This document shows, in pieces, positions 31,358 to 44,478 of a stretch of DNA of 64,000 nucleotides. Every line of letters begins with the position of its first letter. The first letter of the stretch is position 1. The notes beneath the pieces are model-generated. The model was not told where the DNA came from. It searched no databases and saw only the letters and a program-made list of their open reading frames with translations. The translations under genes and the position numbers were made by a program. Source of the stretch: Escherichia coli. Its GTDB lineage: Bacteria > Pseudomonadota > Gammaproteobacteria > Enterobacterales > Enterobacteriaceae. Location of the stretch: NCBI RefSeq assembly GCF_016903815.1, contig NZ_CP069973.1; one strand, given 5' to 3'.

Positions 31358-31600
31358 ATAGAGCGAGGACGCTAACAGGAACAATGACTCAGGATGAGGG
31401 TCAGGAGCGCCAGGAGGCGAAGACAGAGGATTGTCAGGAAGACAAACGTCCGGAGACGTAATTAAACGGAAATGGAATCAACACGGATTGTTCCGGCTAA
31501 TGGAAAAACAGGGTGTGTTGGCGGCCTGCAAGGATTGTAAGACCCGTTAAGGGTTATGAGTCAGGAAAAAAGGCGACAGAGTAATCTGTCGCCTTTTTTC
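31358..31600 (+). ncRNA. csrC: CsrC small RNA (CsrA-sequestering)
   Basis: It lies in the engB-yihI intergenic region where csrC maps in K-12, has at least a dozen GGA-containing motifs (AGGAC, CAGGAAC, CAGGATG, CAGGAGC, CAGGAGG, GAGGATT, CAGGAAG ...) and ends in the terminator aaggcgacagagtaatctgtcgccttttttc. The 5' end is approximate. Confidence 0.65.
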
Positions 31601-32366: not shown

Positions 32367-33740
32367 ATGTCTGTACAGCAAATCGACTGGGATCTGGCCC
32401 TGATCCAGAAATATAACTATTCCGGGCCACGATACACCTCGTACCCGACCGCGCTGGAGTTTTCAGAAGACTTCGGCGAACAGGCGTTTTTACAAGCCGT
32501 GGCGCGCTATCCTGAGCGTCCATTATCTCTCTACGTACATATCCCGTTCTGCCATAAGCTTTGTTACTTCTGCGGTTGCAATAAGATTGTTACTCGCCAG
32601 CAGCACAAGGCCGATCAGTATCTGGACGCGCTGGAGCAAGAAATCGTCCATCGTGCACCGCTTTTTGCCGGGCGCAAGGTGAGCCAGCTGCACTGGGGCG
32701 GTGGTACGCCGACGTATCTGAACAAAGCGCAAATCAGCCGTCTGATGAAGCTGCTGCGCGAAAACTTCCAGTTCAATGCCGATGCGGAGATTTCGATCGA
32801 AGTCGATCCGCGCGAAATCGAACTGGATGTACTCGATCATTTACGCGCCGAGGGCTTTAATCGCCTGAGCATGGGCGTGCAGGACTTCAACAAAGAAGTG
32901 CAACGTCTGGTTAACCGCGAGCAGGATGAAGAGTTCATCTTTGCACTGCTTAACCATGCGCGTGAGATTGGCTTTACCTCCACCAACATCGACCTGATTT
33001 ACGGCCTGCCGAAACAAACGCCGGAGAGTTTCGCTTTTACCCTGAAACGCGTGGCGGAGCTGAACCCCGATCGTCTGAGCGTCTTTAACTATGCGCATCT
33101 GCCGACCATTTTTGCTGCTCAGCGCAAAATCAAAGATGCTGACTTGCCGAGTCCGCAGCAAAAACTCGATATCCTGCAGGAAACCATCGCCTTCCTGACG
33201 CAATCGGGCTATCAGTTTATCGGTATGGATCACTTTGCCCGTCCGGATGACGAACTGGCGGTGGCCCAGCGTGAAGGCGTGCTGCATCGTAACTTCCAGG
33301 GCTACACCACTCAGGGCGATACCGATCTGCTGGGGATGGGCGTTTCCGCCATCAGCATGATTGGCGACTGCTACGCGCAGAACCAGAAAGAGTTGAAGCA
33401 GTACTATCAGCAAGTGGATGAACAAGGCAATGCGCTGTGGCGTGGTATTGCGCTAACGCGTGATGACTGTATTCGCCGCGATGTGATTAAGTCGCTCATC
33501 TGCAACTTCCGTCTGGATTACGCTCCCATTGAGCAACAGTGGGATTTGCACTTCGCTGATTACTTTGCCGAAGATCTCAAGCTGCTCGCCCCGTTAGCAA
33601 AAGATGGGCTGGTGGATGTGGATGAGAAGGGGATTCAGGTGACGGCGAAAGGTCGCTTGCTGATCCGCAACATTTGCATGTGCTTTGATACCTATCTGCG
33701 CCAGAAAGCGCGGATGCAGCAGTTCTCACGGGTGATTTAA
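32367..33740 (+). CDS. hemN: Oxygen-independent coproporphyrinogen III oxidase HemN (radical SAM), 457 aa
   Basis: Translation MSVQQIDWDLALIQKYNYSGPRYTSYPTALEF... with the CxxxCxxC motif (CHKLCYFCGC). The alternative start at 32361 (MSMSVQQ) is not excluded. Confidence 0.93.
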   Translation: MSVQQIDWDLALIQKYNYSGPRYTSYPTALEFSEDFGEQAFLQAVARYPERPLSLYVHIPFCHKLCYFCGCNKIVTRQQHKADQYLDALEQEIVHRAPLFAGRKVSQLHWGGGTPTYLNKAQISRLMKLLRENFQFNADAEISIEVDPREIELDVLDHLRAEGFNRLSMGVQDFNKEVQRLVNREQDEEFIFALLNHAREIGFTSTNIDLIYGLPKQTPESFAFTLKRVAELNPDRLSVFNYAHLPTIFAAQRKIKDADLPSPQQKLDILQETIAFLTQSGYQFIGMDHFARPDDELAVAQREGVLHRNFQGYTTQGDTDLLGMGVSAISMIGDCYAQNQKELKQYYQQVDEQGNALWRGIALTRDDCIRRDVIKSLICNFRLDYAPIEQQWDLHFADYFAEDLKLLAPLAKDGLVDVDEKGIQVTAKGRLLIRNICMCFDTYLRQKARMQQFSRVI

Positions 33741-33807
33741 ATAGTGAATGGCGCTTCGTTTACAAAGTAGAAAACGAAAGCGCCATCAATGTGCTGAGAA
33801 CAAGATT

Positions 33808-33897
33808 GCCTGATGCGCTACGCTTATCAGGCCTACAAAACCTGTTGAAAATATTGCTTTTGTAGACCGGATAAGGCGTTCACGCCGCATCCGGCAT
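33808..33897. repeat. BIME/REP cluster downstream of hemN
   Basis: tgcctgatgcgctacgcttatcaggcctac ... tgtagaccggataaggcgttcacgccgcatccggca. Confidence 0.7.
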
Positions 33898-33929
33898 GAA
33901 CAAAGAGCACTTCATCAGCAATCTGAAAC

Positions 33930-34040
33930 TCAGCTAAACAGCCCAATCATCGCGGCACACAGCACGGCAGCAACGGCAGTTTGCGGTGTGTGGCTGTCAA
34001 CTGCGCCACTCGATACCAGATTAATTATTGATTCCAGCAT
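33930..34040 (-). CDS. yshB: Small protein YshB (36 aa)
   Basis: Reverse-strand ORF MLESIINLVSSGAVDSHTPQTAVAAVLCAAMIGLFS preceded by a GGGGAGAG Shine-Dalgarno; its position between hemN and glnG matches K-12 yshB as I recall it. Confidence 0.6.
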   Translation of the reverse strand: MLESIINLVSSGAVDSHTPQTAVAAVLCAAMIGLFS

Positions 34041-34151
34041 AATGACTCTCCCCGTTTTCCGGGCAAGATCATACTGAACTTATCGGAACAGTAAAGCGCA
34101 AAATACCAGCAATTTGCGCTCAATAATCAATCTTTACACACAAGCCGTGAA

Positions 34152-35561
34152 TCACTCCATCCCCAGCTCTTTTAACTTCCGCGTCAGAGTGTTACGCCCC
34201 CAGCCGAGTAGCCGCGCCGCTTCCTGTTTATGCCCCTGCGTATGTCGCAGCGCGGTGGTCAGTAACGTCCGCTCCAGCTCAGGCTGCGCTTCGGAAAGCA
34301 GATTTTGATGACCGGAACGCAGCGCCCTGTCTGCCCACTGCGCTAACAGCGTCGCCCAACTGTCCGGTTGCATTTGCGAAGTACTCTCCGCAACCGTTGA
34401 TTCAAACAGTTCGCCAGGCAAATCCTGAATCAACACTTCCTGTCCGGCAGCCATTACCGTTAGCCAGCGGCAGGTGTTTTCCAGCTGGCGCACGTTGCCT
34501 GGCCACGCCAGACGCGTCAGCGCGGCTTCGGTTTCCGGATGCAGTAACTTCGCTTCTACGCCCAGTTCGCGCGCGGCAACCTGTAAAAAATGGCGTGCCA
34601 GGCGGGGAATATCTTCCCGACGCTCACGCAGTGGTGGCAGATGAACGCGGATGACGTTCAGGCGGTGGAACAGATCCTCACGGAACTTACCTTCCTGCAC
34701 CCGCTGTTCAAGATTCTGGTGAGTGGCAGCGATAATCCGCACATCCACTTTCACCGGCGCATAGCCGCCAACGCGATAAAACTGACCGTCTGCCAGCACG
34801 CGCAGCAAACGCGTCTGCACATCCAGCGGCATATCACCAATTTCGTCGAGAAATAACGTGCCGCCATCGGCCTGTTCAAAACGCCCCTGACGAATGGTAT
34901 TCGCGCCGGTAAACGCGCCTTTCTCGTGACCAAACAGTTCTGATTCGATCAAATCCTTCGGGATAGCCGCCATATTCAGCGCGATAAACGGCGCTTTGGC
35001 TCGCGGACTGTGGCGATGCAGGGCATGAGCGACCAGCTCTTTACCGGTGCCGGATTCGCCGTTAATCAGCACGCTAATAGAAGAACGCGAAAGCCGACCG
35101 ATAATACGGAACACGTCCTGCATGGCTGGCGCTTCGCCGATGATATCGGTCGTTGGGCCGTTAAGCTGAACATTACGCGGCTGCTGCTGTTCCTGGTAAT
35201 GACTGATGGCGCGCTCAACCAGGGCGACGGCTTCGTCGATATCAAACGGTTTGGGCAGATAATCAAACGCCCCTTGTTGATAGGCGCTGACGGCAGCATC
35301 CAGATCGGAATGTGCGGTCATAATGATGACCGGAAGCATCGGATGGCGCTGTTTAATCTGCTTGAGCAGCGCCAGCCCGTCCATTCCCGGCATACGGATA
35401 TCTGAAAGCAGCACATCCGGCGTTTTGCTCGCCAGCGCCTCCAGTACCTCCGCGCCGTTCTCAAATGTTGTACAGGTTAAACCCGCTCCAGCGAGCGCAC
35501 GTTCAAGCACCCAACGGATGGAACTATCGTCATCGACTACCCAGACTATCCCTCGTTGCAT
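34152..35561 (-). CDS. glnG: Nitrogen regulation response regulator NtrC/GlnG (sigma54 activator), 469 aa
   Basis: Track ORF 34152..35621; the internal start gives [28 protein letters not shown]...; contains the AAA+ GESGTGKE and GAFTGA motifs and a C-terminal HTH. Confidence 0.95.
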
Positions 35562-44400: not shown

Positions 44401-44478
44401 GCCGGATGTGGCTTAATCCGGCCAACGGAAACCGTATCAACCGTAGGCCGGATAAGGCGTTTTCGCCGCATCCGGCAG
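44401..44478. repeat. REP palindromic units between yihN and ompL
   Basis: gccggatgtggcttaatccggcc ... gtaggccggataaggcgttttcgccgcatccggca. Confidence 0.65.

Follow-up and report, generated by a model that had tools for sequence, protein, structure and literature searches.

The yshB locus and its coding sequence

The window, a 64,000-nucleotide stretch of Escherichia coli DNA, carries on its minus strand, between hemN and glnG, a short open reading frame (ORF) at 33930..34040 that starts with ATG and comprises 36 codons followed by a TGA stop, as read from the ORF list and the sequence itself. Its translation is MLESIINLVSSGAVDSHTPQTAVAAVLCAAMIGLFS. A preliminary description of this DNA had reported a minus-strand ORF of 36 codons here, and its coordinates and quoted translation match ours exactly. 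Upstream of the ATG, back to the preceding stop, no in-frame start codon is present. The same description had stated that E. coli K-12 has the small protein gene yshB at this position. In the K-12 MG1655 genome (NC_000913.3), yshB (b4686, 4053647-4053757) is indeed flanked by hemN and glnG, and alignment of the two peptides, which had been proposed as a check, gave 36 identical residues out of 36. Sequence, position between hemN and glnG and orientation are thus all the same as for K-12 YshB (b4686; NF033841; PF28018), and there is no difference at the protein level, the window being derived from a non-K-12 strain.

Family assignment points the same way. The window peptide matches the NCBIfam equivalog NF033841 (small_YshB) with 72.1 bits (cut-off 34, E = 2.4e-20), the match covering residues 1-36 and profile positions 1-40 of 40. 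Over 1,000 contigs encode exactly this peptide, which UniRef lists as YSHB_ECOLI. A scan of YshB against Pfam-A returned no family at E <= 1 and the precomputed annotations of the collection give PF28018:YshB for every ortholog; the PF28018 model is probably newer than the Pfam-A copy that was scanned. Profile searches of the PDB with YshB gave no match even at E <= 10, so that no solved YshB-like chain was found there, and searches with YshB against PADLOC and PHROGs were likewise without a match.

At the DNA level, 5,425 of 5,426 complete E. coli genomes have a match to a 601-nt query taken around the ORF, with a coverage of at least 80% in 5,399. This stretch is 100% identical to strain 7/2 and others, most E. 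coli genomes being 95-99% identical. In the listed records, the RefSeq label under the match reads 'yshB: YshB family small membrane protein', with glnG and hemN at its flanks, and approximately 5,400 complete E. coli genomes carry a yshB annotation. The gene is already catalogued (K-12 b4686, NF033841) and the window sequence is the type sequence itself. We regard it as virtually certain that the 36-codon ORF is yshB and encodes a real small protein, and we hold with very high confidence that it constitutes a small-protein gene that is transcribed and translated independently. The initial call was correct and ordinary, and it adds nothing new to the gene catalogue.

The 3' region of yshB, a spacer that it has in common with the convergent hemN, is filled by an inverted pair of REP sequences (a BIME) at 33807..33895, to which no strand is assigned and of which the inverted arms lie at 33823-33840 and 33858-33875; a further REP copy is found at 44448-44476. 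When folded, the BIME region reaches z = -8.2 compared to shuffled sequences. This inverted REP pair explains why the 601-nt query finds a median of 34 match places per E. coli genome, and also why the Rfam search returned, as its only match, a sub-threshold and REP-derived hit to naRNA4 (32.2 bits against a gathering score of 59.5). At the Klebsiella-type and Erwiniaceae loci, plain GC-rich hairpins stand where E. coli has the BIME. Immediately past the hemN stop codon, a long near-perfect hairpin, GATGGCGCTTTCGTTT...AAACGAAGCGCCAT, occupies 33746-33787 and is presumably the hemN terminator, though it has no clear T-tract on either strand. Elsewhere in the window, at approximately 31384-31550 between yihI and yihA, lies a stretch that RefSeq treats as a pseudogene in the 100%-identical strain 7/2, namely a 'hypothetical protein' that is frameshifted and interrupted by a stop.

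Promoter, Shine-Dalgarno sequence and hairpins in the glnG-yshB spacer

Scanning both strands of 33650-34350 for sigma-70-like sites returned a single one, located in front of yshB. It consists of the -35 hexamer TTTACT (34090..34095, minus strand) and the -10 hexamer TATGAT (34068..34073, minus strand), with a 16-nt spacer in between. Downstream of it lies the Shine-Dalgarno (SD) sequence GGGGAGAG (34046..34053, minus strand), of which the GGAG core ends 7 nt before the ATG, exactly the distance given in the preliminary description. In an alignment of the glnG-yshB spacer from eight lineages, the invariant positions are precisely those of the expression signals: CTTTAC is unchanged in all eight, GTAT-AT is unchanged from E. 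coli to Erwinia tracheiphila, and so are two G residues of the SD sequence, while the remainder of the spacer diverges. A purine- and G-rich SD-like run, with these two invariant G columns, is present at the same place in every one of the eight lineages. In the literature, yshB is stated to have its own promoter, which is not induced by nitrogen limitation (PMC9731577).

RNA folding predicts two hairpins in this spacer. The first is a small CCCG-GAAAA-CGGG hairpin (34051..34063, minus strand) close to where the 5' end of the mRNA is predicted; its 3' arm extends into the first G residues of the SD sequence. A comparable CCCG...CGGGG arrangement occurs in most lineages. This conserved leader hairpin may serve to stabilise the mRNA at its 5' end or to influence translation. 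The intergenic region as a whole folds no better than shuffled sequences (z = -1.0). The second is a 9-bp hairpin, GAGCGCAAA-N10-TTTGCGCTT (34094..34121, minus strand), situated directly past the glnG stop. It is kept in Enterobacteriaceae and not in Erwiniaceae, and its 3' arm runs into the -35 hexamer of yshB. We infer that it is probably the terminator of glnALG, in which case terminator and yshB promoter would be interleaved. A terminator scan of 33650-34350 found none, the hairpins in this region having long loops or no T-tract; the hairpin at 34094..34121 was missed by the scan because its loop exceeds 8 nt.

Conservation of yshB and selection on its reading frame

An absence of conservation across Enterobacteriaceae had been named in advance as the outcome that would speak against the gene. 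The opposite was found, as yshB is kept across Enterobacteriaceae and also in Erwiniaceae. When 1.84 billion representative proteins were searched exhaustively with HMMER, 15 matches emerged, nearly all of them variants of YshB or versions of it with a frameshift or a wrong start. The source names of the family comprise Escherichia/Shigella, Salmonella, Citrobacter, Leclercia, Enterobacter, Klebsiella and Erwiniaceae, including Erwinia tracheiphila. Among the matched proteins, P0002 and P0005-P0008 consist of N-terminal halves of YshB joined to out-of-frame tails, one of which extends into the REP region; these fused-tail versions are sporadic frameshift alleles or assembly errors of individual genomes.

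For a comparison at the DNA level, eight lineages were used that take in E. coli, Citrobacter, Salmonella, Enterobacter, a Klebsiella-type lineage and Erwiniaceae. In all eight, yshB is intact and starts at the same ATG, about 100-115 nt past the glnG stop. The gene lies immediately downstream of glnLG, on the same strand, in the window, K-12, Citrobacter, Salmonella, Enterobacter, the Klebsiella-type lineage and Erwiniaceae. In Erwinia tracheiphila, where yshB has one extra codon (37 amino acids), glnLG is retained upstream and hemN is gone from the downstream side, its place being taken by a gene for an SBP_bac_5 solute-binding protein. With adjacency to hemN lost and adjacency to glnLG kept in this species, the stable linkage is that to glnLG rather than to hemN, which speaks for a merely historical proximity to hemN.

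How far the gene extends beyond these families was assessed by a glnG-anchored scan of a phylogenetically spread sample, in which Enterobacterales are represented only by Citrobacter and Photorhabdus and which was used mainly as an outgroup set. The outgroup loci include Photorhabdus, Vibrio, Shewanella, Pseudomonas and beta- and alpha-proteobacteria. The family profile scores at least 69 bits at every Enterobacteriaceae or Erwiniaceae locus, whereas against the six-frame ORFs of 79 outgroup glnG loci it reaches at most 9.4 bits, with no ortholog among them. Accordingly, yshB is limited within this sample to Enterobacteriaceae and Erwiniaceae. As a side observation, SKQO01000147.1, 2.9 kb long and assigned to the metagenome-assembled genome of a 'Halobacteriales archaeon', encodes an NtrC approximately 50% identical to E. 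coli GlnG; most likely this is a bacterial contig mis-binned into an archaeal genome.

The pattern of substitution is that of a coding sequence. Of all six frames, the yshB frame is the only one that is free of stops in all eight lineages. Out of 37 alignment columns for each codon position, 23, 10 and 30 are variable at the first, second and third position, respectively, and Nei-Gojobori dN/dS values range from 0.04 to 0.39 for every pair with a computable dS. In five Enterobacteriaceae, the coding sequence is 79% identical, compared to approximately 30%, the background of unaligned sequence, over the 70 nt past the stop. Purifying selection acts on the yshB ORF in Enterobacteriaceae as well as in Erwiniaceae. 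In the protein, the motif HTPQTA is invariant in all eight lineages. In a 17-member family alignment, M1, E3, H17, Q20, T21, A22, A25, C28, A29 and F35 are invariant and T18 and P19 nearly so, and the window peptide carries every conserved residue of the family core (H17, T18, P19, Q20-T21-A22, A25, C28-A29 and F35).

These data bear on two alternative readings in which the ORF itself has no or little importance. The first is that it has arisen by chance and is without function. In the window, ORFs as short as this one are very frequent: the 4.5 kb around yshB are overlapped by 67 ORFs of at least 20 amino acids, so the length of the ORF alone is not significant and it is by its conservation that yshB rises above chance. 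Conservation, annotation and expression evidence all oppose a chance ORF, and we consider this reading excluded for practical purposes on account of the conserved frame, the low dN/dS values, the identity to K-12 YshB and the detection of the native protein.

The second holds that the locus works through an RNA, whether a small RNA (sRNA) or a transcript derived from the 3' end of glnALG, with the ORF being of incidental or secondary importance. Salmonella yshB was reportedly first met in an sRNA screen, in the work of Bomjan from 2019, which counts in favour of this idea, as does the conserved leader hairpin described above. Moreover, the locus directly follows glnG, a position at which Pseudomonas has the sRNA NrsZ (PMC9731577). 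An RNA without a coding role, however, does not account for third codon positions that vary three times as often as second ones and a dN/dS far below 1, nor for the preservation of start, stop and frame in all lineages; in addition, yshB matches no Rfam family and its protein has been detected (PMC12529367). We therefore rate an RNA as the sole or main product as very improbable. A dual-function RNA, coding for YshB and having a role as RNA besides, may exist at this locus.

Probable membrane association, expression and possible function of YshB

YshB contains no Lys or Arg, two acidic residues and a single His, and it ends with a hydrophobic segment. The preliminary description had noted a hydrophobic C-terminal half, and the best 15-residue window, T21-F35, has a mean Kyte-Doolittle value of 2.37, in line with that claim; its further suggestion, that the protein is possibly membrane-associated, agrees with this hydropathy and with published cleavage of YshB by the intramembrane protease RseP (PMC10470546). 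An AF2 model based on the 17-sequence family alignment shows a helix at residues 2-13, a break at V14-S16 and a second helix at 17-35, with a mean pLDDT of 72, which is only moderate confidence for a model of the isolated peptide without a membrane.

From these features and the published work, YshB probably inserts as an integral membrane protein. The competing view is that YshB is a soluble peptide, or one only peripherally bound to the membrane, whose site of action is the cytoplasm or the membrane surface. In its favour, the strictly hydrophobic stretch measures only 15 residues and is not flanked by positive charges, there being no Lys or Arg to fix the topology, and the N-terminal segment is amphipathic. 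Also, PMC12529367 names 'the small protein YshB' apart from small membrane proteins. Against this, the second helix of the model comprises 19 residues, enough to span the bilayer, TMHMM or TOPCONS predicted one span for every small protein screened in the RseP study, YshB included, and RseP cleaves YshB both in vivo and in vitro (PMC10470546). NCBI curators, too, call the family a small membrane protein. On balance, we consider a soluble or peripheral location unlikely.

Several studies have encountered the E. coli protein. Native YshB was detected by top-down mass spectrometry, the authors noting the absence of tryptic sites (PMC12529367), which fits the lack of Lys and Arg. The ribosome profiling of Li et al. 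2014, as it is cited in PMC7549839 and PMC10502375, predicts more than 11,000 YshB copies per cell. A C-terminally His-tagged YshB, on the other hand, was not detectable after arabinose induction (PMC7549839). In a study of the S2P protease RseP, YshB was classified as a 'class I' substrate, in the same group as HokB and HokE; cleavage was positive in all four assays, including those that used purified enzyme or the RseP encoded on the chromosome, and YshB was additionally clipped by another protease (PMC10470546). All constructs in that study were N-terminally tagged, and its authors warn that tags may alter the topology (PMC10470546).

In Salmonella enterica, YshB also has 36 amino acids and is 92% identical to the E. 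coli protein, from which it differs by the three substitutions V23L, M31L and I32V; its gene lies after glnLG and before hemN and has the same promoter blocks and SD sequence. According to the account of Bomjan 2019 given in PMC10470546 and PMC9731577, Salmonella YshB promotes intracellular replication and regulates virulence, and the same two papers cite a lowered fitness in host cells upon loss of yshB. In these citing papers, the phenotype in virulence and intracellular replication belongs to Salmonella enterica YshB only.

Being small and hydrophobic, YshB could in principle be a type I toxin-like, Hok-like peptide that damages the membrane and is kept at a low level of expression. Its place beside HokB and HokE among the class I substrates of RseP and the failure to detect it after induced over-expression would fit such a toxin. 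However, no cis-encoded or adjacent antisense RNA, which in type I systems with small hydrophobic toxins such as Hok, Ldr, Ibs and Sho represses the toxin mRNA, emerged from the promoter scan of 33650-34350, where the opposite strand is devoid of promoter-like sites, or from the Rfam search, which gave no antisense RNA or sRNA match; PADLOC and PHROGs were without a match as well. A predicted abundance such as that cited above and the detection of the native protein do not suit a toxin, and neither does a core gene present in single copy and at a constant chromosomal position in approximately 5,400 E. coli genomes and in two families. Furthermore, as far as the citing papers relate, loss of yshB reduces rather than increases the fitness of Salmonella in host cells. 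A Hok-like function is in our view highly improbable.

In the mechanism that we consider most likely, YshB acts as a small membrane protein. The conserved sigma-70-type promoter TTTACT-16-TATGAT and the SD sequence drive expression of the 36-codon ORF, and the product would fold into helix (2-13), break (14-16) and helix (17-35) as predicted by AF2. The C-terminal helix, with T21-F35 as its core, is tail-anchor-like and may insert post-translationally into the inner membrane in an N-in/C-out orientation; a cytoplasmic N-terminus is the topology that RseP requires. The short amphipathic N-terminal helix would then rest on the cytoplasmic face of the membrane. The interfacial H17-T-P-Q-T-A motif and the invariant C28 could form a specific contact surface, through which YshB might bind and modulate a larger membrane protein, and its level or turnover would be controlled by RseP and another protease.

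That YshB modulates a larger partner membrane protein, by analogy with MgrB, MgtS and CydX, is our tentative suggestion and somewhat short of an even chance. These proteins, as well as Blr, are like YshB smaller than 50 amino acids, have one predicted membrane helix and come from the same small-protein surveys, but they have no sequence relationship to it. The respective partners are PhoQ for MgrB, MgtA/PitA for MgtS, cytochrome bd for CydX and the divisome for Blr. Each of the four thus has an identified partner, whereas YshB is without a known one. Compared to them, YshB is unusual in having no Lys or Arg and in carrying its hydrophobic segment at the very end. Several of the four are, as YshB, substrates of RseP (PMC10470546).

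Two further roles may be envisaged. In one, the invariant His17 and Cys28, on either side of the HTPQTA motif at the membrane interface, would bind a cofactor or metal, and YshB would be an accessory subunit of a specific membrane complex with a respiratory or tetrapyrrole-related task; in the other, its N-terminal helix, released by RseP, would be a cytoplasmic signal. The frequent adjacency to hemN is suggestive of a respiratory or tetrapyrrole-related role; together, these two roles appear to us quite improbable.

What makes YshB worth pursuing is that it is abundant, conserved in two enterobacterial families, cleaved by RseP and, according to the papers that cite the Salmonella work, needed for Salmonella intracellular growth. 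The interfacial HTPQTA motif, the invariant Cys28 and the conserved promoter offer concrete targets for mutagenesis and for finding partners. Two other published observations touch on the locus: yshB mRNA was lower in E. coli from mice with DSS colitis than in healthy controls (PMC12592466), and a SNP in the yshB-glnG intergenic region arose during evolution of phloroglucinol tolerance and was not among the three mutations that improved tolerance (PMC10874397).
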